DNA of 64,000 nt from Dehalococcoidia bacterium (lineage in GTDB: Bacteria; Chloroflexota; Dehalococcoidia; Lucifugimonadales; UBA2985), in NCBI GenBank assembly GCA_965222415.1, contig CBDCTU010000004.1:128850-192849 (forward strand). The letters are read 5' to 3'. The position numbers and the translations under genes are program-made. Below, in pieces: positions 53,405 through 64,000 of this stretch. The stretch's first letter is position 1. Each line of letters starts with the position of its first letter. The notes beneath the pieces are model-generated. The model saw only the letters and a program-made list of their open reading frames with translations, made no database searches and was not told the origin of the DNA.

Positions 53405-54655
53405 GTGAGGGATTCAGTGGATTTTATGCAGCTGCTGGAGTACGGCCTCCCTTCCGGGAAGCTGGAACTTCTGAGGTCGGCGGGCCGCATTGCCCGCGAC
53501 GAAGGCGTTCCCATGTACCTGGTGGGCGGCAGCGTCCGCGATATGCTGCTGGGCAGGCCCGTCGGAGACTTTGACCTGGTAGTGGTGGGCGACGCTGAGA
53601 CTATGGCATACGTCGTGGCCAAGCGACTGTCCGGCCAGGTGGTGTCCCGCTCCCAGTTCTCGACAGCCAAAGTGAAGGTGGATGGCGAGTCCCTTGACCT
53701 CGTGACCGCCCGGACGGAGCGCTACAGCAGGCCCGGCGCTCTTCCTCAGATAGCCCACGGCACGATAGAAGAGGATCTGGCGCGGCGGGACTTCTCCATC
53801 AACGCTATGGCCGTTCCCCTTCATATGGACTCGAAGGACGGGCCGCTGGACCTCTTCAACGGAGAGGAGGACCTGCAACTCGGACTTGTCCGGGTGCTCC
53901 ACGAGGGGAGCTTTGCGGACGACGCCACCCGCATATTGCGGGCCGTCCGCTACGAGCAGCGACTACGCTTCCGGCTGGAGGAGCGCACGGAGGCCCTGCT
54001 AATCGAGAACCTGTCCATGCTGGACACCATCAGCGGCGACAGGCTGCTCAGGGAAATCCAGCGCTGGCTCGCCGAAAAGGACGCCTCCGGGATTCTCCTG
54101 CGAGCGGAAGAGTTGGGGGTTATGGCCGCCATACATCCGGCTCTGTCCAAGTCAGGTGAGTCTGTGCGCTCTGCGATGGAAAGAAGCAAGGGGCGCATCG
54201 AGGAGTTGGTGTGGGTGGGAATGATGGCATATGCCCTCACCACCGCGGAAGGCGAAGGACTTATCGAGCGCCTGCGCCTGCCAATGCGATTGGTCAGAGT
54301 GGTCCGGGACGCCATTGCCATCAAGGAACGGATGCCCCTGCTCTCCGATGAGCACATCTCTGCCGTCCAACTGTACGACGTCCTGGCCTCGTCCGAGACC
54401 GCGGCCGTCCAGGCGTGCGCTCTGGCGGCCCAGGAGACGGCCCGGTCAAACCTGGCCCTGTTCCTGGAGAAGCTGCGCCACGTCAAGCCGGCTCTGGGCG
54501 GAAGGGATCTCATAGAGATGGGAGTGCCTCAAGGCCCCGCCGTCGGAGAGATGCTGACAATGCTAAAGCGCGCCCGGCTGGGTGGGACCGCCGGCAGCCG
54601 AGCGGAAGAGGTAGATCTGGTACAGGAGGCCCTCAAAAGCGAGGGGGCTGGTTGA
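53405..54655 (+). CDS. second class-II tRNA nucleotidyltransferase / poly(A) polymerase family protein (no HD domain)
   Basis: MYLVGGSVRDMLLGRPVGDFDLVVVGD and ...RRDFSINAM motifs. GTG start at 53405, with an alternative ATG at 53426. Confidence 0.8.
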   Translation: MRDSVDFMQLLEYGLPSGKLELLRSAGRIARDEGVPMYLVGGSVRDMLLGRPVGDFDLVVVGDAETMAYVVAKRLSGQVVSRSQFSTAKVKVDGESLDLVTARTERYSRPGALPQIAHGTIEEDLARRDFSINAMAVPLHMDSKDGPLDLFNGEEDLQLGLVRVLHEGSFADDATRILRAVRYEQRLRFRLEERTEALLIENLSMLDTISGDRLLREIQRWLAEKDASGILLRAEELGVMAAIHPALSKSGESVRSAMERSKGRIEELVWVGMMAYALTTAEGEGLIERLRLPMRLVRVVRDAIAIKERMPLLSDEHISAVQLYDVLASSETAAVQACALAAQETARSNLALFLEKLRHVKPALGGRDLIEMGVPQGPAVGEMLTMLKRARLGGTAGSRAEEVDLVQEALKSEGAG

Positions 54656-54955: not shown

Positions 54956-55098
54956 CTAGTGTCCTGTATCCGTAGTTCCTCGCATTATTCGAGGGCTTTC
55001 TGAAAGGACAGAGAATCGGATTCTTGCTCAAACCAGGGTAGTGGATCAGCATCGATCACCCCTTTATTTGCCAATGTACTTTGGTTACACCACACTAG
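54956..55098. mobile_element. MITE-like element A, copy 2
   Basis: Identical direct copy of 54674-54816. Its terminal CTAG (55095-55098) contains the hisB stop codon. Confidence 0.5.
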
Positions 55099-55694
55099 TC
55101 GCTGATGGTGCCCTTGGTGCTGGGCACGTCTCCGGCTATGCGCGGGTCGATGGCGACGGCTTGGCGTATCGCCCGGGCCAGCGCCTTGAAGAGCGCCTCC
55201 GCTTTGTGGTGCTCATTGGCTCCGTAGAGGATCTCTGCGTGGAGGTTCAGCCGCCCCTCAAGGGCAAACACCTCCAGAAAGTGGCGCACAAGGTCTGAAG
55301 GCAGGTCCCCAATGTGTGAGTCCTGGAAGGGCGTCTTGATCACGGCGTAGGGCCTGCCTCCCACGTCCACGGCAACCAGGGCCAGGGTCTCGTCCAAGGG
55401 GACCATAATATTACCCATTCGGACTATACCCCTTCCCTCCCCTATTGCCTGGTGCAGCGCCTGTCCCAGGACAATGCCGACGTCCTCCACCAGATGGTGC
55501 CAGCCCGGGGACGTGTCGCCCTTGGCGGAAACAGTGATGTCCATCAGGCCGTGTCTGGCCAGCTGCTCTATGAGGTGGTTGAACATCCCGTTTGGGGTGT
55601 CTACCGAGTACTGGCCCGTCCCGTCCAGGTCAATGGTCACGCTAACCTGGGTCTCTCGGGTGTCTCTTGTGAGGGAAGCAGTACGATTGCTCAC
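55095..55694 (-). CDS. hisB: imidazoleglycerol-phosphate dehydratase (monofunctional)
   Basis: TRDTRETQVSVTIDLDG... with HH motifs. At 199 aa it has no fused phosphatase domain. GTG start. Confidence 0.95.
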   Translation of the reverse strand: MSNRTASLTRDTRETQVSVTIDLDGTGQYSVDTPNGMFNHLIEQLARHGLMDITVSAKGDTSPGWHHLVEDVGIVLGQALHQAIGEGRGIVRMGNIMVPLDETLALVAVDVGGRPYAVIKTPFQDSHIGDLPSDLVRHFLEVFALEGRLNLHAEILYGANEHHKAEALFKALARAIRQAVAIDPRIAGDVPSTKGTISD

Positions 55695-55733
55695 TATCTA
55701 TCTCCAAAGTCAGAAATAGGCGACTGCGCACAT

Positions 55734-55985
55734 GGAGACCTTTGCATAACTCCGGGTATTATCCCGTGAAGAGACGCGCCTACTGTCATTCCGAACGTAG
55801 CGCAGCGAAGTGAGGAATCTAAAGCCTCTGCCTACAAAGCTGCATTGCCTTGGATGGAACGCTTTGGATTCCTCGCTGCGCTCGGAATGACATATATTGG
55901 AGCTTCGGAGTAAGTTGCGCAAAGGTCTCCTTCCGCAGGAATGACAGGTAATAAAGCATCGGGGCAAGTTATGCAAAGGTCTCCA
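55734..55985. repeat. REP/MITE-like repeat cluster between hisB and hisC
   Basis: Contains gtcattccgaacgtagcgcagcgaagtgaggaatc and gattcctcgctgcgctcggaatgac, plus ccgcaggaatgac and two gttatgcaaaggtctcc motifs. It is homologous to 6090-6186. Confidence 0.8.
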
Positions 55986-55997
55986 CACGGGCTTGGA

Positions 55998-57119
55998 CTA
56001 CCTCAGCTCCGCCAATATGTCTTCCAGTGCTTCTACGATGATATCAGTATGCTCCGGCTTTCCGACGGATATTCGCAGCGAGTGCTTCAACTGAGGCGTG
56101 TTGAAGTATCGCACAAAGATTCCGCGGCTCGCCAGTCCCTGGAACACCAGTGTTGCCTTGTCACGGGGCACGTCGAACAGCAGGAAGTTCCCGTGAGAGG
56201 GCCACACGCTGATCCCCTCTATGGCTGACAGCTTGGAGGAGAGGCGGTCCCGCTCCCCGACGATGGCCTCCACGTTGCGCTTCAGATACGGAAGGTCTCC
56301 CAGGGAGGCCATCAGCGCCACCTCCGCCGCGGCGCTGATGTTGTAGGGCTGCTTGATGTCCATGAGCAGCAGCTGGAGTCGCGGGTCCATGATACCGTAG
56401 CCCAGGCGCAGGCCGGCCAGGCCGGCCCATTTGCTCAAGCTCCGCAGCACCACAAGGTTGGGATACTTCGACACCAGGTGCGCCACCGTGTGCCCGCTGA
56501 ACTCGTAGTAGGTCTCGTCAATCACCAGCAGGAGGTCTTCCTCCAGCAGTCCCAGAACGACCTCCTCCGACACAAGGTTGCCGGTCGGGTTGTTGGGAGA
56601 GGCCAGGAAGACGGCCTTCGTGTTAGGCTCAATGGCATCCTTCACTGCGCCCAGGTCTACGTTGTACCGGTCGTCCCTTGGGACGGAGACCAGCCTCCCG
56701 CCGTTGACCTGGGTGCTGAAGGTGTACATCCCGAAGGTTGGCGGGCAGTCGATAACCCCTTCCTCGGACTCCAGGGTAGCTCTCAGCAGCAGGTCGATGA
56801 GCTCGTCAGCCCCGGCTCCTACGATAATGTGGCTTGAGGGCGCGCCGGTGTACTCCTCAAGGGCGCTCCGCAGCGCATTCTGCCTGGCGTCCGGGTAGAT
56901 GTGGTAACCTTCGTGGCGGCCCAGCGCCTCCTGCACCCGCTTTGATGGCCCGTAGGGGTTCTCGTTGCCGTTCAGCTTGATGATCCGCTCCGGCGGTATC
57001 CCGGCCATCTCCGCCAGCGCTTCCGGCGAGTCCACGGCCGTGTAAGGGTTCAACTCTCGCAGGTCTCGGCGAAAGAGGGATGTGATGTCCATTCTTCCAG
57101 TTGCTCTCATTCTCGACAC
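55998..57119 (-). CDS. hisC: histidinol-phosphate aminotransferase
   Basis: IKLNGNENPYGP and the PLP-lysine region SLSKWAGLAGLRLGY. The start is uncertain (GTG at 57119, ATG at 57110 or 57092). Confidence 0.9.
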   Translation of the reverse strand: MSRMRATGRMDITSLFRRDLRELNPYTAVDSPEALAEMAGIPPERIIKLNGNENPYGPSKRVQEALGRHEGYHIYPDARQNALRSALEEYTGAPSSHIIVGAGADELIDLLLRATLESEEGVIDCPPTFGMYTFSTQVNGGRLVSVPRDDRYNVDLGAVKDAIEPNTKAVFLASPNNPTGNLVSEEVVLGLLEEDLLLVIDETYYEFSGHTVAHLVSKYPNLVVLRSLSKWAGLAGLRLGYGIMDPRLQLLLMDIKQPYNISAAAEVALMASLGDLPYLKRNVEAIVGERDRLSSKLSAIEGISVWPSHGNFLLFDVPRDKATLVFQGLASRGIFVRYFNTPQLKHSLRISVGKPEHTDIIVEALEDILAELR

Positions 57120-57152: not shown

Positions 57153-58481
57153 TCAGGACGGCCTGTTCTGAAGCTCTGCCCTGATCTCCACCGCGCGTGC
57201 GTGGGCGTCGAACCCCTCGGCTCTGGCGATTGTGGCTGCGGTCTTTGTCAGGCGTAGGGCTGTCTGGGGGTCCAGGTCTACCACGGGCATCCTTCGCAGG
57301 AACTCCGTCGCTCCCAGGTAGGAGTTGAATCGAGCCGTGCCTCCGGTCGGCATAACGTGGCTTGGGCCTGCAACGTAGTCGCCCATCACCTCCGGCGAGA
57401 AGTCTCCCAGGAAGACGCCACCGGCGTTGTGCACCTTGTCCACGCAGCGCCAGGGCTCTTTGACCATCAGGCACAGGTGCTCCGGGGCGTAGTGATTGGC
57501 CAGGTCCAGGGCATCGTCCAGTGTGTCCACCAGCACGATAGCTCCCCTTGCCTCCATGGACGCCTGGGCTGTCTCCTTGCGGGAGAGGCTATCCAATTGC
57601 CTATCGAGTTCCTCCTGGATGAGAGGTATCAGCGTCTCCGACGTGGTAATCAGGACTGGGGTAGCCATCATATCGTGCTCCGCCTGCCCAAGAAGGTCGG
57701 CGGCGCAGAGCGCGGGGTTGGCACTGTCGTCCGCTACAATCAGGGTTTCCGTCGGCCCTTCCAGGCCATCGATCTTCGTTTCCCCGTAGACCATCTTCTT
57801 GGCCAGGGTCACGAAGATGTTGCCGGGTCCGCACACCATATCGACTTTGGGAACGGTCTCCGTGCCGTAGGCCAGCGCTGCTATAGCCTGTGCGCCTCCC
57901 ACCTGGAAGACCCTGTTCACCCCGGCGATGAGGGCTGCGGCCATGACAGTGGGGTTGGGCCCTCGGTCGCCCTGGGGCGGTGTAACCAGTACAATCTCCT
58001 TCACGCCCGCCACCTTAGCCGGGATGGCGGTCATAAGCACAGTGGACGGGTAGGACGCCAGGCCGCCCGGGCTGTAGATGCCCACACGCTCTATCGGAGA
58101 GATTATCTCCCCGAAGCCTCTCTCCATATCCATCCAGGACCGGGGCAGGCCGGCGACGTGAAAGTCGCGTATCCGGCCCACTGAACGCCGTAGCGCCTCA
58201 CGCGTCTCCTGAGGGGCCTCTTCTGCGATACGAACTATGGCGTCGCGGTCAAGCTCCATGCCCTCAAGCTCTACTCCGTCAATGCGCCTGGTGTACTCGC
58301 GCACGGCGTCATCGCCGCGAAGGGCTACATCAGACACAATGCGGCTCACAGCTCCCTCCGGGGTCAGGTCCTCGCCGAAGATTCTCTTGATGCCCTCCAG
58401 CAGCTCCAGCGGCGTGGAGTTGCCTCCTGGCGTCCTTGAGAGGGCCTTCCTGCCCTCGTCCATACCACGAACTACCCTCAC
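57153..58481 (-). CDS. hisD: histidinol dehydrogenase
   Basis: 442 aa with the typical HisD pattern (SPGGLASYPSTVLM, QAEHD). The GTG start overlaps the upstream stop as GTGA. Confidence 0.95.
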   Translation of the reverse strand: MRVVRGMDEGRKALSRTPGGNSTPLELLEGIKRIFGEDLTPEGAVSRIVSDVALRGDDAVREYTRRIDGVELEGMELDRDAIVRIAEEAPQETREALRRSVGRIRDFHVAGLPRSWMDMERGFGEIISPIERVGIYSPGGLASYPSTVLMTAIPAKVAGVKEIVLVTPPQGDRGPNPTVMAAALIAGVNRVFQVGGAQAIAALAYGTETVPKVDMVCGPGNIFVTLAKKMVYGETKIDGLEGPTETLIVADDSANPALCAADLLGQAEHDMMATPVLITTSETLIPLIQEELDRQLDSLSRKETAQASMEARGAIVLVDTLDDALDLANHYAPEHLCLMVKEPWRCVDKVHNAGGVFLGDFSPEVMGDYVAGPSHVMPTGGTARFNSYLGATEFLRRMPVVDLDPQTALRLTKTAATIARAEGFDAHARAVEIRAELQNRPS

Positions 58482-59242
58482 GGCAGATACCCTCTGGCAA
58501 AGCTCAGCAAGTCCTCAATGCTCCTCTCTCTGAACGCCGCCACGAGCTCCTCGGGCACGGCGCAGTATATCCGCTCCAGGCCGTTTGCAACTGACTCCAG
58601 GAACTCCTCCGCCATTTTCTTAACAGGTTCTTCCGACTCCGCGCCTTCCTGCCGGGCGACTCTTCCAGCCATAAAAAGGAGCCTGTCCCAGTTGAACTCG
58701 CCGCCCAGGGAGTTCTGGACCCATTCCCGCCATTCAACTAGGGTTTCCGCAGATATAAAGCCAATGTCGACGTCCCTCTCGGCATTTGCCATGAGGGGCT
58801 TGATCTCCATCGTCCCGCCCATCGCCAGATGCTCCCTCCGGTCCAACTCCAACTGAAGGGCGCGGTCCATCAGGTTGCCGAGCAGCTTGTCCTCGAATAC
58901 CTCACGGTTGCCGAAGTACGGACGGTACAGGTTCAGTATCCACAGCTCGTCAGTGAACAGGTGACTGGCAAACCCTACAATGAACGCTTTGGTGGGCTCG
59001 TTGAGGTCAGAGGCTTGGTCCAGATTGGGGTGAGAGTGAAACAGACCCTCTATCCCATCCCCTTCCCTCTCGAAGTCCAGCGGGACAAAGTGGGTTTCGT
59101 CGCGCTTTCCCCTGGTGATTATGCGTATGTCCGGGGACACGGACCCAAGGAGAAATGCGCCCATATTGTTGTTCAAAGTCGGGTGGTCCAGCCGCGAGGC
59201 GGCGTCCTTCGCCATTCCCAGGTGTGCGCTGAAGTTGGGCAT
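58478..59242 (-). CDS. metal-dependent phosphoesterase-like protein (resembles the zinc-dependent phospholipase C family) inside the his operon
   Basis: N-terminal MPNFSAHLGMA...GSVSPD...ETHF...HSH pattern of His/Asp ligands. GAGGGAG RBS present. It sits 16 nt after the hisG stop and is coupled to hisD by a GTGA overlap. Confidence 0.65.
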   Translation of the reverse strand: MPNFSAHLGMAKDAASRLDHPTLNNNMGAFLLGSVSPDIRIITRGKRDETHFVPLDFEREGDGIEGLFHSHPNLDQASDLNEPTKAFIVGFASHLFTDELWILNLYRPYFGNREVFEDKLLGNLMDRALQLELDRREHLAMGGTMEIKPLMANAERDVDIGFISAETLVEWREWVQNSLGGEFNWDRLLFMAGRVARQEGAESEEPVKKMAEEFLESVANGLERIYCAVPEELVAAFRERSIEDLLSFARGYLP

Positions 59243-59258
59243 TGCTCCCTCTAACCGG

Positions 59259-60257
59259 CTAGCTTCCGCCCAGTGCCTGGAGCACCGTCTCGTAGGAAGA
59301 GCACTGGTCCTGAAATACGTAGTGGGCCTGGAACACGGTAATGCCGCTGCCGCCGATCTGACGCAGGTGGTCCACCGCCTCCAGCAGCCTCTCTCTGGGC
59401 ACGACGGTGGTCACGGCGTACCATATCTCCTCGTCTCTGCTGTACACCCTGGAAATGGTAGGCCCCGTCAGGCCGGCCACCTCCGGGCGCTGCGCAACGT
59501 GGGCCGCAACCTCCTCCGGCGTGTTGCCCCTGATGTTGGCCGTAATGCTGAAGAAGTCTCTGGCGCGCAGGTAAGCCTCTATGTGCTCCAGCAGGCCCCT
59601 GGTCTCCAGCCGCGAGGACTCACCCTGGGCCAGCAGCCGCCGGTTGCCGATGATGCAGGCCTGAGACTTCAGGATGGTCCCGTCCACTATCATTTTGAGG
59701 CGGTTCTCCCTCATAGTGGTTCCGCTGGAGGAAATGTCGGCGATGATGTCGGCAAAGCCCATCGCGGGCGCGGCCTCCAACGTACCGCTCGACTGCACCA
59801 GCGACAAGTAGTTCACGCCGAATCGATAGAGGTGACGTTGGACCAGCCGGGGGTACTTGGTGGCGACCCGCAGGTCCCTTCCCCGCTCACGCAGCTCGAT
59901 CGACAGGTCGGCCAGGTCGCTCATGGAAGTCACGTCCATCCAGGAGTCCGGGATGCCCATGACAAGCTCACAGCGCCCGTATCCCAAGTCTTCCTTAACC
60001 AGAAACGAGTCTCCGCCCTCCGCCCTAGACTCCAGAAAGCGGTCCAGCCCGGTAACGCCAAGGTCGGCGCTGCCCTCCTCCACCTTCATCGGAATGTCCC
60101 CGGTCCTCTGGAACAGGACGCTGGTGTCGCGCAGATTGGGTATGGAGGCCGTGTACCGACGAGGGTTTGGGCGCTCTATGGGCACGCCGCTGCTTCGAAG
60201 GAAGCCCAGGGTCGATTCGTGGAGCTCACCGTCGCTGGGGATTGCTAGACGTAAGAT
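59259..60257 (-). CDS. hisG: ATP phosphoribosyltransferase, long form with a C-terminal regulatory domain
   Basis: The conserved N-terminus ILRLAIPSDGELHESTLGFLRSSG is encoded upstream of the track start (GTG at 60185). No ATG/GTG/TTG precedes it after the in-frame TAG. I propose the ATC at 60257-60255, preceded by GGAGGAG. A HisG_C-like tail (TGPTISRV...WYAVTTVVPRERL...) is present. Confidence 0.8.
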   Translation of the reverse strand: MLRLAIPSDGELHESTLGFLRSSGVPIERPNPRRYTASIPNLRDTSVLFQRTGDIPMKVEEGSADLGVTGLDRFLESRAEGGDSFLVKEDLGYGRCELVMGIPDSWMDVTSMSDLADLSIELRERGRDLRVATKYPRLVQRHLYRFGVNYLSLVQSSGTLEAAPAMGFADIIADISSSGTTMRENRLKMIVDGTILKSQACIIGNRRLLAQGESSRLETRGLLEHIEAYLRARDFFSITANIRGNTPEEVAAHVAQRPEVAGLTGPTISRVYSRDEEIWYAVTTVVPRERLLEAVDHLRQIGGSGITVFQAHYVFQDQCSSYETVLQALGGS

Positions 60258-61458
60258 GTCTCTCCTCCAATTCTCCTGACGGCAGGTCCAGAATGTTCTC
60301 TATCGTGTAGGCAAAGCCAAGGGCGGGCACGTCGTCCTCTCCTCCCAGGGCCTTCACCAGGCCGTTGTAGCGACCGCCGCCGCCCAGGAACACGGGGCCG
60401 TCCGTGGTCAGGGTGATGATGTCGAAGACCATCCCTGTGTAGTAGGCGATCCCCCTCACAAGGCCGATGTCTATCCTGAGCGATACGGAGGGGCAGCGCT
60501 CGTGGAAGCCGGCCAGCACCTCCTCCAGGGGCGACAATACGTCCGGGCTGAGGCCGAACTCCTTTGCAATGGAGCTTATCTGACGCAGTGCGCTCTTCTC
60601 CTCTATGGGTGCAAAGGCGAGATCAGAAAGCAAATCTATGCCCGTCGCAATCGCCTGGGGGTCGTCCACCCTCTGCAGCTTGTCCGTGAAGCGAGTCAGG
60701 ATGTCCTCCATTGTGCGGCTGCCCAGGAGGCCGGTCAGGGACTCTTGGAACAGGTCCTGCAACAGGTCAAAGGACTCCGCCTCGTCCCGGCCTTCTATCA
60801 GCATACGCAGTCCCCTGGCTGTGTCGTCGGATGTCAGCAGTCCCAGGGAGCGCGCCTGCTCCTGTACGCGCCTGCTCCCCTCCTCCCCATCCCTGAGGTG
60901 GTGGAAGCCCGCAATCAGGAATTCCTGTGCCCTTGGGGATATGCCAAGGCCGTCCAGCATCCGGTGCAGCACTCCTATGTGCCCTACGATGCAAAGTGGC
61001 TGTGCGACTCCCAGCAGCGCCAAACCCTCCCGGGCCAGGGCAAGCACCTCGGCGTCTGACGACGGCTCGTCGGAGCCTATGATCTCCGCGCCCATCTGGT
61101 GAAACTGCCTGTACCCTGTCGACTCGTCGTATCGAAAGACGGGGCCGTCGTACTGGAGCTTCAGGGGCAGAGGCTCAGTGTCGGCCCTCTCCAGGTAGTA
61201 CTGTATGGCCGATGACGTGAACTCCGGGCGGAGGCTCACCCTGTTGCCGCCCGGGTCGGTGAAGGTGTACATGCGCGCTGCCAACTCTCCCCCGGACTTT
61301 CGGAGGAATAGCTCCGTGGGCTCCAGAAGGGGCGTGTCTATGCACTGGTAGCCGTGAGACGAGAAGAGATCCCGCAGCCCGTCCTGGACGGTCGTCCTGC
61401 GCCCAAGCTCCTGGGGGCTCTCGTACTTCATCCCGGGCAATCGACGAATGGGCAGCAT
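60226..61458 (-). CDS. hisZ: ATP phosphoribosyltransferase regulatory subunit HisZ (HisRS paralog without an anticodon-binding domain)
   Basis: Class-II aaRS core motifs (FRYD..., GGGGRYNGL...PALGFA). The protein ends about 20 aa after motif 3. Confidence 0.85.
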   Translation of the reverse strand: MLPIRRLPGMKYESPQELGRRTTVQDGLRDLFSSHGYQCIDTPLLEPTELFLRKSGGELAARMYTFTDPGGNRVSLRPEFTSSAIQYYLERADTEPLPLKLQYDGPVFRYDESTGYRQFHQMGAEIIGSDEPSSDAEVLALAREGLALLGVAQPLCIVGHIGVLHRMLDGLGISPRAQEFLIAGFHHLRDGEEGSRRVQEQARSLGLLTSDDTARGLRMLIEGRDEAESFDLLQDLFQESLTGLLGSRTMEDILTRFTDKLQRVDDPQAIATGIDLLSDLAFAPIEEKSALRQISSIAKEFGLSPDVLSPLEEVLAGFHERCPSVSLRIDIGLVRGIAYYTGMVFDIITLTTDGPVFLGGGGRYNGLVKALGGEDDVPALGFAYTIENILDLPSGELEERHLTSSNPQRR

Positions 61459-61723
61459 AGCGATAGCGTACCTCTTGGATTATATGTGAAGCATTGTACA
61501 ATAACCCTGTGGCTGATTCAACGCGGGGGCATGCTGAGGAGGGGCTTCGAAGCGCTCTACTCGCACGGTTGGGAGTGTTCGGTGACCACCGGGGTATCCG
61601 ATCTATAATTGGATCACACTAGGGTTGCTTCAAGACGATCTGTCAGATTGTGTTGTTCCCCGTCTGATGATAGCCGGAAATCGGGAATCTATAGAAAGCC
61701 CCAAGTTTTGTGGTCAAATTGGT

Positions 61724-61751: not shown

Positions 61752-61847
61752 ACCATTAGTCTTAGTCTGTGGCGTTGCTAACGCTATTCCAAGTAACAAA
61801 CGGATGTGGTCACAGTGAACGATGTTTTCGGTTCCGTGTCGAGGAGG

Positions 61848-62228
61848 ATGCTTGATGTGCAGAAGCCCCTGGTGTCCACCGGCTTGAGCAGGATGCTTGA
61901 TGTGCAGAAGCCTCTGGTGTCCACCGTATTGAGCAGGATGCTTGATGTGCAGAAGCCCCTGGTGTCCACCGGCTTGAGCAGGATGTTTGATGTGCAGAAG
62001 CCTCTGGTGTCCACCGGCTTGAGCAGGATGTTTGATGTGCAGAAGCCTCTGGTGTCCACCGTATTGAGCAGGATGCTTGATGTGCAGAAGCCCCTGGTGT
62101 CCACCGGCTTGAGCAGGATTTTTGATGTGCAGAAGCCTCTGGTGTCCACCGGCTTGAGCAGGATGTTTGATGTGCAGAAGCCTCTGGTGTCCACCGGCTT
62201 GAGCAGGATGTTTGATGTGCAGAAGCCC
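61848..62228 (+). repeat. tandem array of 8 full plus 1 partial 45-bp direct repeats
   Basis: Units start at 61848, 61893, 61938, 61983, 62028, 62073, 62118 and 62163, with a 21-nt partial unit at 62208. The consensus is atgYttgatgtgcagaagccYctggtgtccaccgKMttgagcagg. A degenerate copy lies at 61821-61847. Confidence 0.95.
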
Positions 62229-62876
62229 ATGTTCGCCAAGATTGCTTACTCGATTCACGGAGTGTTTCCATCGTTGGAAGAAGCTCGGTTTGAGGAAACT
62301 GGGTGGTTCCCACATTACACATTTCCAAAGAAACTCTTGAGAGAGAACGATGGCAATTCTGACTCCGATGCGGCGATTTTGGCCTACTACCGTGAAAACT
62401 GGGCGGAAGTTCGACTATCAATAGAGGAGAATATTTCCAATTATGTCGTTGATGACGATGCGAAGGCAGTTCTACGTCAAGCATTGGCTGCGTATGAAGG
62501 TGATCTCCATTCTCTTGTATGCCCTGCCTTGTTTACCCAGGTAGAGAGAGTCGTTCGTGTACATTTGTGTGACGACAAGATCGGTAAGATATCAGTTAAG
62601 GATAAGCTTGAAGACCATCTTGGCGACCTTCCTGTTTCTGCATTTCCTGACATATCATTGAGTCTTGTTTCTTTTGATATGTTGGACCACTTGTATGAGA
62701 GCATCAAGACTGAGGGAGACCGTGAACGCTTCATGAGCAATCCGATTCCTAACCGTCATTGTGCTATTCATGGACTTGTACCTTACACCGGGAAGAAGAG
62801 CAGTCTCAATTCTATCTTCATAGCCGATTACGTTTTTGGGTTGATCACAGCAGTGAAAGAAGAAGAGACTCGATAG
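62229..62876 (+). CDS. low-GC hypothetical protein with a C-terminal HEPN-like Rx4H motif (the track ORF extends in frame through the repeats to 61806)
   Basis: An ATG at 62229 follows the partial repeat directly. NRHCAIHG lies near the C-terminus and an alpha-helical AKAVLRQALAAYEGDLHSLVCPALFTQVERVVR segment upstream of it. Which start is used is unresolved. Confidence 0.6.
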   Translation: MFAKIAYSIHGVFPSLEEARFEETGWFPHYTFPKKLLRENDGNSDSDAAILAYYRENWAEVRLSIEENISNYVVDDDAKAVLRQALAAYEGDLHSLVCPALFTQVERVVRVHLCDDKIGKISVKDKLEDHLGDLPVSAFPDISLSLVSFDMLDHLYESIKTEGDRERFMSNPIPNRHCAIHGLVPYTGKKSSLNSIFIADYVFGLITAVKEEETR

Positions 62877-63175: not shown

Positions 63176-64000
63176 CTACGCCTCTATCCCCAGCTCTTCC
63201 CTGATGCTCTTCAGTACGTCCACGTTGTCTTTGTCCGGGCCCTTGCCTTCCGCTCCCGGCACCTCCAGGAGGAACGGGACATCCCTGAAGGCGGGGTGTC
63301 CCATGATGACGCGGAATCCCTCGACGCCCATGTGCCCCTCGCCGATGTTCTCGTGGCGGTCCACGCTGCCGGCAAAGGGTATCTTGCTGTCGTTGGCGTG
63401 CACCGCCACCAGGTTGTCCAACCCTATCTCCCGGTCGAACTCCTCCATCGTCCGTTCGAGCCCGTCCTGGGTCACGATGTTGTACCCCGCAGCGAAGAGG
63501 TGCTGGGTGTCCAGGCACACCTTCACCTGCGGGCTGGCTACGGCCTTCATCAGCCGGCCTATCTCCTCGAACTTGGAGCAGATGTGGTCTCCCATGCCGG
63601 CGCTGTTCTCGATGGCGAGAGAGACGTTCTCCGGGGATGCCTCCAGCACCTGCGCCATCGCTCTTACGGCCTGGTCGAAGACGCCGTCGTAGCCTGCCCC
63701 GCGGTGGCTGCCGGTGTGGAAAATGACTCCCGAAGCGCCGATCTCCCCTGCTGCCTGCATGTAGTTGGTGAGCGCACCAATGGATTTTTGCAGGTTCTCC
63801 TCCGTGGGACTGCCCAGACTGACCAGGTATATGCAGTGGAGGAATGTTGGGGTTATGTCAGCCTGGATCGCCTTCTCCTTGAACTTCTCTATAAGTGGAG
63901 AGGCAATCGGCTTGAAGGCCCATCCCTGGGGCGACGAAATGAACATCTGGATGGCCTCAGCGCCCATCGCCTGGCCCCTGTCAATTGCTTTGTCCAGCCC
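63176..64000 (-). CDS. nfo: endonuclease IV (5' part runs off the window end)
   Basis: HANDSK...DRHENIGEGHMG in a TIM-barrel AP endonuclease pattern. The frame stays open to position 64000 (GLDKAIDRGQAMGAEAIQMF...). Confidence 0.9.
   Translation of the reverse strand, partial: GLDKAIDRGQAMGAEAIQMFISSPQGWAFKPIASPLIEKFKEKAIQADITPTFLHCIYLVSLGSPTEENLQKSIGALTNYMQAAGEIGASGVIFHTGSHRGAGYDGVFDQAVRAMAQVLEASPENVSLAIENSAGMGDHICSKFEEIGRLMKAVASPQVKVCLDTQHLFAAGYNIVTQDGLERTMEEFDREIGLDNLVAVHANDSKIPFAGSVDRHENIGEGHMGVEGFRVIMGHPAFRDVPFLLEVPGAEGKGPDKDNVDVLKSIREELGIEA

Follow-up and report, generated by a model that had tools for sequence, protein, structure and literature searches.

A phospholipase C/P1-nuclease-fold protein encoded between hisG and hisD in Dehalococcoidia, a candidate for the missing histidinol-phosphate phosphatase

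A phosphoesterase-like gene inside the his operon and the phosphatase gap

Which enzyme removes the phosphate from histidinol phosphate in a bacterium in which every other step of histidine biosynthesis can be assigned, and could it be the product of the one gene in its his operon that is not a known his gene? The question is raised by the DNA analysed here (the window, 64,000 nucleotides from positions 128,850 to 192,849 of contig CBDCTU010000004.1, Dehalococcoidia bacterium assembly GCA_965222415.1), in which a gene that we call X (protein P0001, 254 amino acids (aa); 58478–59242, minus strand) lies between hisG and hisD. Its PF00882 match, AlphaFold2 model, VIA structural matches and conserved residues place X in a his-operon subfamily of metallophosphoesterases with the phospholipase C (PLC)/P1-nuclease fold, predicted to be cytoplasmic. 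The original prediction for this locus was that X is a non-orthologous histidinol-phosphate phosphatase (HolPase). We find that X is the best candidate for the missing HolPase, which makes this the leading hypothesis and not a secure assignment; that X is the HolPase of this particular genome we put at a little under even chances.

The gene order that had been read from the minus strand, hisZ-hisG-X-hisD-hisC-hisB, is borne out by the open reading frames (ORFs) and their Pfam and NCBIfam matches. Upstream of X lie hisZ (60226–61458, minus strand like all genes of the cluster; ATP phosphoribosyltransferase regulatory subunit, 410 aa; Pfam tRNA-synt_His 169 bits and NCBIfam hisZ model 211 bits, the latter below its cut-off) and a long-form hisG (59259–60185; ATP phosphoribosyltransferase, 308 aa; Pfam HisG and HisG_C, and TIGR00070 and TIGR03455 at 145 and 61 bits, both above their cut-offs). 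Downstream are hisD (57153–58481; histidinol dehydrogenase, 442 aa; Pfam PF00815 Histidinol_dh, 497.8 bits), hisC (55998–57119; histidinol-phosphate aminotransferase, 373 aa; Pfam Aminotran_1_2, 195 bits, and the hisC position in every related operon) and hisB (55095–55694). The junctions on both sides of X are also as had been described: the hisG stop codon, TAG, occupies 59259–59261, the next 16 bases (59243–59258) are CCGGTTAGAGGGAGCA, and the X start codon, ATG, follows at 59242–59240, with the purine-rich, Shine-Dalgarno-like sequence AGAGGGAG within this spacer and directly 5' of the start as a good ribosome-binding site. At the other end of the gene the X stop codon, TGA (58480–58478), shares bases with the hisD start codon, GTG (58481–58479), in a GTGA overlap (58478–58481) that couples the translation of the two genes, and this junction is kept in related loci.

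The claim that HisB is an imidazoleglycerol-phosphate dehydratase alone held up as well. The 199 aa protein is monofunctional and without the HAD phosphatase domain (Pfam IGPD 184 bits; NF002116 272.6 bits against a cut-off of 269), and it aligns to just residues 165–354 of the NCBIfam model of bifunctional HisB. In the genome from which the window comes (G000, 97% complete) hisIE, hisF, hisD, hisC, hisB, hisG and hisZ were all located. The fused HisIE of this genome, like that of its whole order, has a good PRA-PH domain (76–78 bits), and because hisIE is present the pyrophosphohydrolase step is covered and the phosphatase is the sole his step left unfilled. The genome search for HisB-N, HisJ/HisK and HisN that the original prediction had proposed was run and gave no HisB-N match and no above-cut-off HisJ, the best HisJ-family match being 27 bits against a cut-off of 90. 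The PHP-like proteins behind such matches are weak on the HisJ model (27.3 and 23.9 bits); one match lies within a 580 aa ORF and the other is a CehA/McbA-like metallohydrolase adjoining xseA. Against a HisN cut-off of 275, two IMPase-family proteins reach 176 and 130–133 bits, and their scores on the SuhB model are nearly as high. These two proteins carry MGSAALGLAY and WDVASG (IMP1) and MGSIACEM and WDVAAG (IMP2), that is, the SuhB-type motif 5 (GSAAL or GSIAC) together with a glycine in motif 6, features by which Kulis-Horn et al. 2017 (PMC5516325) recognise IMPases that lack HolPase activity. HisN itself has a motif 5 of the form R-x-x-G-D-x-aromatic-x-aromatic and a non-glycine residue at the motif-6 position (same reference), and neither IMPase of the source genome has these features.

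How widely is X linked to his genes? Public names of close homologs point to the phylum Chloroflexota, class Dehalococcoidia, and we compared 201 genomes of that class, grouped into families (f-numbers below). The order hisZ-hisG-X-hisD-hisC(-hisB) is kept in 20/20 loci of the window's own family, in 17/17 loci of other families of the order or class, and in 5/5 loci of family f108. Co-localisation with his genes, which had been suggested as a check, was thus found in 42 of 42 loci examined, each with the order hisG-X-hisD despite X identities that fall to 26–30%, and the order persists also beside a short-type hisG. By profile search, X is encoded in 126 of the 201 genomes, and its presence is nearly all-or-none within a family. 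Since hisD is present in 194, about two thirds of the hisD-bearing genomes (126/194) have X; the seven hisD-less genomes all lack X as well, X was never found apart from hisD in the families that have it, and in the X-less genomes of the window's order hisG directly abuts hisD. Because of this constant his linkage, and because X is absent wherever hisD is absent, a function of X in histidine biosynthesis is very likely.

Fold and conserved residues of X

X matches PF00882 (Zn_dep_PLPC) with 29.6 bits (gathering score 26.8, E = 7.9e-7), a match that spans X residues 7–98 only, or profile positions 2–93 of 167, and the same precomputed match is found in most X homologs. No NCBIfam model is matched by X, and neither Pfam nor sequence comparison matches it to the P1/S1 nuclease family PF02265. 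An AlphaFold2 model built on an alignment of 26 orthologs (28–70% identity) is all-alpha, with a mean pLDDT of 95.4 and a pTM of 0.92. When this model was compared with 48,161 chains by VIA-align, the top six matches were all PLC enzymes or P1/S1 nucleases (Z 8.5–6.2, modest values for a helical protein; 156–173 residues aligned with root-mean-square deviations of 4.0–5.4), and the next match falls to Z 4.1. Most of these top alignments begin at X residue 1 or 2 and at residue 1 of the mature enzyme. A Foldseek search of the PDB with the model gave no credible match, a profile search of PDB sequences gave chance matches to BCL10 and importin only and no solved PLC, and the language-model neighbours of X were weak leads to acyl carrier protein phosphodiesterase clusters, with a score (0.79) too low to be useful. 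The resemblance to phospholipase C noted originally is therefore upheld by the above-threshold PF00882 match together with the structural matches.

Residue conservation was compared over 73 orthologs from nine lineages. G33, P37, D38, R47, H51, G90, H94, D98, F110, D126 and Q130 are invariant in all 73, and P2 and H7 are present in 72, the remaining sequence being gapped there. We take P2, H7, D38, H51, H94 and D98 to match the N-terminus, His, Asp, His, His and Asp that bind the two tightly coupled zinc ions in PLC and P1 nuclease; this match is one of order and spacing, not of residue-wise alignment. The three ligands of the third zinc (His, His and Glu or Asp) have no conserved counterpart in X: there is no conserved His six residues past D98, and the i/i+4 pair is D126/Q130 where the classical enzymes have His/Glu. 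The N-terminus of X, MPNFSAHLGMAKDAASRLDH, has no hydrophobic signal sequence as judged by inspection, and X is therefore predicted to be cytoplasmic. The Met-Pro start is near-invariant across the 73 orthologs and is also kept in paralogs, which fits, by analogy with PLC and P1 nuclease, an enzyme that may use a free N-terminal amine as a metal ligand.

The two classes of known enzymes nearest in fold differ from X in several respects. The Zn-dependent PLC enzymes (PF00882; Bacillus cereus PC-PLC 1AH7, the clostridial alpha-toxin N-domain 1OLP and Listeria PlcB 8CQM) are all-alpha like X, match it with Z of 8.5, 8.3 and 7.5, respectively, align with it from the very N-terminus and, in their published ligand set, present the same order of N-terminus, His, Asp, His and His-x3-Asp. 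However, they are secreted, and their mature N-terminus is freed by cleavage of a signal peptide or propeptide, neither of which is apparent in X by inspection; in addition, D126/Q130 replaces their third-zinc positions, the C-terminal helical half of X is longer, and X is encoded in an amino-acid biosynthesis operon with nothing to suggest a lipid substrate. The P1/S1 nucleases (PF02265; S1 nuclease 5FB9, a plant bifunctional nuclease 3W52 and SmNuc1 8QJL) have the superfamily fold in common with X (Z 6.9–6.2), and once Met1 is removed the spacing from the N-terminal residue of X to its first His is 5, as in Trp1...His6 of P1 nuclease. In contrast to these secreted glycoproteins, X is predicted to be a cytoplasmic bacterial protein; its third metal site is different, and it gives no sign of nucleic-acid binding.

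The X family is small: of 1.84 billion representatives, 722 match it at E ≤ 1e-3 and only 136 do so at E ≤ 1e-30. It has paralogs of similar length and 23–29% identity to X in Chloroflexota and metagenomes (for example P0227, P0234 and P0256). X and these paralogs have core residues M1, P2, H7, G33, D38, R47, T50, H51, F52, G90, H94 and D98 in common. The paralogs differ by their non-his neighbourhoods, which contain genes for glycosyltransferases, RNase HII and CDP-alcohol phosphatidyltransferase, and by the motif H-N-x-x-R that most of them have where the his-linked clade has D126-R-x-x-Q130. A metagenomic homolog that is only 26% identical to X has D-R-x-x-Q and is followed by an overlapping hisD. 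Because signature and hisD linkage persist together even at this identity, the his-linked X proteins form a distinct, specialised subfamily. Two unrelated metagenomic contigs (L148:4253–5886 and L151:441–2086) carry non-his paralogs that are translationally coupled to a gene for a 279–295 aa protein, with glycosyltransferase and RNase HII genes 3' of the coupled pair, possibly another conserved module in which a protein of the X fold takes part.

X and recognised phosphatases in related genomes

If X is the HolPase, it would be a metal-dependent phosphoesterase of the PLC and P1/S1 nuclease fold, cytoplasmic, that has become a dedicated histidine-pathway enzyme. Its substrate, metal stoichiometry and individual residue roles, as we infer them, would be as follows: X would catalyse L-histidinol phosphate + H2O -> L-histidinol + Pi, being made from the same mRNA as HisC, the maker of the proposed substrate, and coupled in translation to HisD, the would-be user of the product. 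After removal of Met1, two metal ions would be coordinated by the free Pro2 amine together with H7, D38, H51, H94 and D98. D126-R-x-x-Q130, in place of the third-zinc ligands, would join R47 and R107 in binding the substrate, both at its dianionic monoester and at its amino-imidazole portion. The scaffold is chemically suited to this, since P1/S1 nucleases also hydrolyse 3'-phosphomonoesters through their 3'-nucleotidase activity. X would share its reaction and its his-operon membership with the known HolPases (HAD-type HisB-N, PHP-type HisJ/HisK and IMPase-type HisN), and in this genome and its order it occurs where they are missing. In fold and metal site, however, X has no relation to any known HolPase, including the phosphoserine-phosphatase-like HAD enzymes that also act as HolPases (Price et al. 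2018, PMC5764234).

Are X and the recognised HolPases then distributed as substitutes for one another? Within the window's order they are: X and HisN never occur together, eight families have X and no HisN (f1, f2, f5, f8, f12, f14, f88 and f89), and two have HisN and no X (f87, in 3/4 genomes, and f7; 248–270 bits). Among families that have HisE, a tally finds a recognised HolPase in about 1/18 with X versus 4/9 without it, numbers for which the relatedness of the genomes makes a formal test unsafe.

Over the class as a whole the complementary distribution does not hold, and several further observations weigh against X being the HolPase. Strong HisN proteins (215–305 bits overall on TIGR02067) accompany X in 12/12 genomes of f100 (264–305 bits), 12/12 of f29 (mostly 242–273 bits), 12 genomes of f108 (215–240 bits), two of f27 and one of f121. 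These co-occurring proteins match HisN far above any other IMPase model, and at motif 6 they have a non-glycine residue. Their motif 5 is that of HisN, exact in f108 and f29 (as in the HisN of the X-less f91) and closely similar in f100 (as in that of the X-less f87). In f108 hisN even lies within the X operon and is coupled in translation to hisB, the two genes overlapping by 4 nucleotides in one such genome, G461. HisJ-like PHP proteins accompany X in f105 and f117, so that about 53 of the 126 X-bearing genomes have a recognised HolPase candidate (39 strong HisN and about 14 HisJ-like). A clean non-orthologous displacement would look different, since in ~40% of X-bearing genomes a HisN or HisJ-like protein is encoded as well. 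Where HisN is present, the constraint on X would be expected to be relaxed and its evolution faster, and no consistent difference was seen: the ratio of X to HisD divergence (dX/dHisD) is 1.65, 1.14 and 1.53 in three HisN-bearing families and 1.02–1.98 across six HisN-less groups, and every candidate catalytic residue of X is retained in the HisN-bearing families. There are also X-less relatives with intact his operons and neither HisN nor HisJ (f18, f4, f13, f15 and many class-level families), so an unrecognised phosphatase must operate in this clade. Finally, known members of the PLC/P1 fold are mainly phosphodiesterases, and a second non-his gene, HAD-family P0122, also sits among the his genes of this genome.

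That second gene (P0122, 242 aa) lies between hisF and hisIE in a second his cluster outside the window, hisF-HAD-hisIE (G000 contig C1:469826–471952; locus L058:6827–8953, minus strand), and overlaps hisIE by 4 nucleotides. Its best model, haloacid dehalogenase type II, is matched below the cut-off, and its motif I is D-x-Y/F-x-T, without the Asp+2 that is the general acid of HAD phosphatases. P0122 is limited to the window's order, where it has the same position in several families and is found with X, with HisN or alone. Given the missing Asp+2, its co-occurrence with HisN in f87 and f7 and its absence from many his-complete genomes, we consider P0122 less likely than X to be the phosphatase, but its presence demonstrates that these his clusters contain accessory genes. 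Immediately 5' of hisF is a 1207 aa ORF that neither Pfam nor NCBIfam matches (L058:9137–12760; G000 C1:472136–475759, minus strand).

The original prediction had named as refuting evidence a canonical HolPase elsewhere together with X orthologs unlinked to his genes; in the relatives genuine HisN does occur with X in f100, f29 and f108, and the his linkage of X is universal in the loci examined. What stands of the proposed non-orthologous HolPase is therefore the metal-phosphoesterase fold, the his linkage and the single unfilled step, and what tells against it is the genuine HisN beside X in relatives. The assignment is held to a hypothesis by this co-occurrence, by the unrelaxed constraint and by the presence of the HAD gene.

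Could X instead be a his-pathway phosphoesterase for another substrate, the phosphatase step then being done by a promiscuous or unrecognised enzyme? We consider this possible, if rather unlikely. Its most concrete form is that X is an analog of HisE and acts on phosphoribosyl-ATP (PR-ATP), the product of HisG, directly after whose gene X lies; the undiminished constraint on X beside genuine HisN, including the in-operon hisN of f108, and the phosphodiesterase activity of known fold members are both in its favour. A clear HisE (PF01503, E ≤ 1e-8) was found in just 68 of the 201 class genomes, compared with hisD in 194, and the X-bearing families that have a HolPase, f100, f108, f105 and f117, are exactly ones without HisE. 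In f29 (G367, L056:5557–7022) a short standalone hisE precedes and overlaps hisG, giving the order hisE-hisG-X-hisD. However, X as such an analog would be redundant in this genome and order, which have the good fused HisIE noted above; HisE is present in about 50 of the 126 X-bearing genomes, and in f29 all three of HisE, HisN and X occur. In 9 of 10 HisE-less genomes tested, MazG-family proteins were found, one X-less genome among them, and these may supply the PR-ATP step there, a MazG protein being a proven PR-ATP diphosphatase in Desulfovibrio (PMC5764234). We accordingly rejected, as the main reading, X as the HisE replacement of the source genome, where hisIE is intact, with MazG candidates available elsewhere in the class. 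In further versions of the idea X would hydrolyse pyrophosphate (PPi), or else a phosphoester that arises in the pathway through damage or as a side product. A family I pyrophosphatase was not found in the source genome, but an H+-pyrophosphatase that would cover PPi removal is encoded there, and nothing positive pointed to X as a dedicated inorganic pyrophosphatase, which was likewise rejected; for the repair version no specific substrate can be named. Standalone HisI proteins occur in many Dehalococcoidia genomes, and the apparent 'internal TGA' of the f29 hisE hits is the natural stop codon at the end of the domain.

X might also serve both steps, hydrolysing PR-ATP at its diphosphate (a diester/anhydride reaction, PLC/P1-like) and histidinol phosphate (a monoester reaction like that of the P1 3'-nucleotidase). 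We think this improbable, in spite of the number of features that it would explain: the position of X between hisG and hisD; the rarity with which X-bearing families combine HisE with a HolPase (f29 and two f27 genomes only); the presence of both in the X-less families f87, f7, f91 and f92; and some 32 X-bearing genomes that have neither.

It is similarly improbable that X is a passenger with a non-histidine role (turnover of lipid head groups or of nucleotides, say) that entered the operon in a common ancestor of the class and stayed there by inertia. The nearest paralogs of X do lie in non-his contexts, many clean losses of X have not disrupted the his operon, and class-wide its distribution is complementary to that of no known his enzyme. 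However, its position and its start and stop coupling have been kept while the protein diverged to 26–30% identity and the type of hisG changed, it is always with hisD in the families that have it and missing exactly where hisD is missing, and the invariant D126-R-x-x-Q130 of the his-linked clade speaks for a specialised role in this setting. Least probable is that X is non-catalytic and binds metal for, or regulates, the zinc enzyme HisD or HisG/HisZ, at a ratio to its partner fixed by the hisD coupling, which would suit an invariant His/Asp cluster serving metal binding alone and the persistence of X whichever hydrolases are present, but R47, R107 and R127 are conserved as is typical of substrate or phosphate binding, beside a full dinuclear-type ligand set, and we know of no organism in which HisD or HisG has such a partner.

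With X as the HolPase still the leading hypothesis, what would follow from a his-dedicated enzyme of the PLC/P1 fold? GapMind 2026 (PMC13759103) gives hisN as the largest remaining gap in amino-acid biosynthesis, not found in 42 of 208 prototrophs (20%), and puts PR-ATP pyrophosphatase second; the X family is not mentioned there, and our full-text literature search found no paper that ties a PLC-like protein to histidine biosynthesis. Such an enzyme would add one more answer, unrelated in structure to the others, to the question of how one of these two steps is carried out, it would correct predictions of auxotrophy for the large and mostly uncultured Dehalococcoidia, marine lineages included, and it would mean that a trinuclear-zinc phosphodiesterase scaffold had been recruited to core cytoplasmic metabolism with its third metal site remodelled. 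The mixed phyletic signal carries a warning as well, namely that operon position and a pathway gap are insufficient to assign a step.

Other features of the his cluster and its surroundings

From hisZ to hisB no further promoter- or terminator-like site was detected on the minus strand inside the cluster; a sigma-70-like promoter match (TTGAAT-17-TACAAT, a match to consensus only) lies 5' of hisZ at 61493–61521, minus strand. The hisZ of the window neighbours a long-form hisG that retains the HisG_C regulatory domain (59259–61458 for the two genes, minus strand); HisZ normally partners a short HisG, and a short-type hisG is found at the same position in the more distant relatives f108, f31 and f29. 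The 300-nucleotide gap between hisC and hisB contains an unsupported 92 aa ORF (55710–55988, minus strand) with no Pfam or NCBIfam family match, and unlike this gapped arrangement hisC and hisB are adjacent in other families.

On the hisZ side the cluster is flanked by a gene for a 356 aa protein with weak signals of an ArsR-type helix-turn-helix and a zinc ribbon (DUF2082; 61806–62876, plus strand) and by one for a xylose-isomerase-like TIM-barrel (AP_endonuc_2) protein (63176–63967, minus strand). Beyond hisB, a gene of the CCA-adding or poly(A)-polymerase family is located at 53405–54655.

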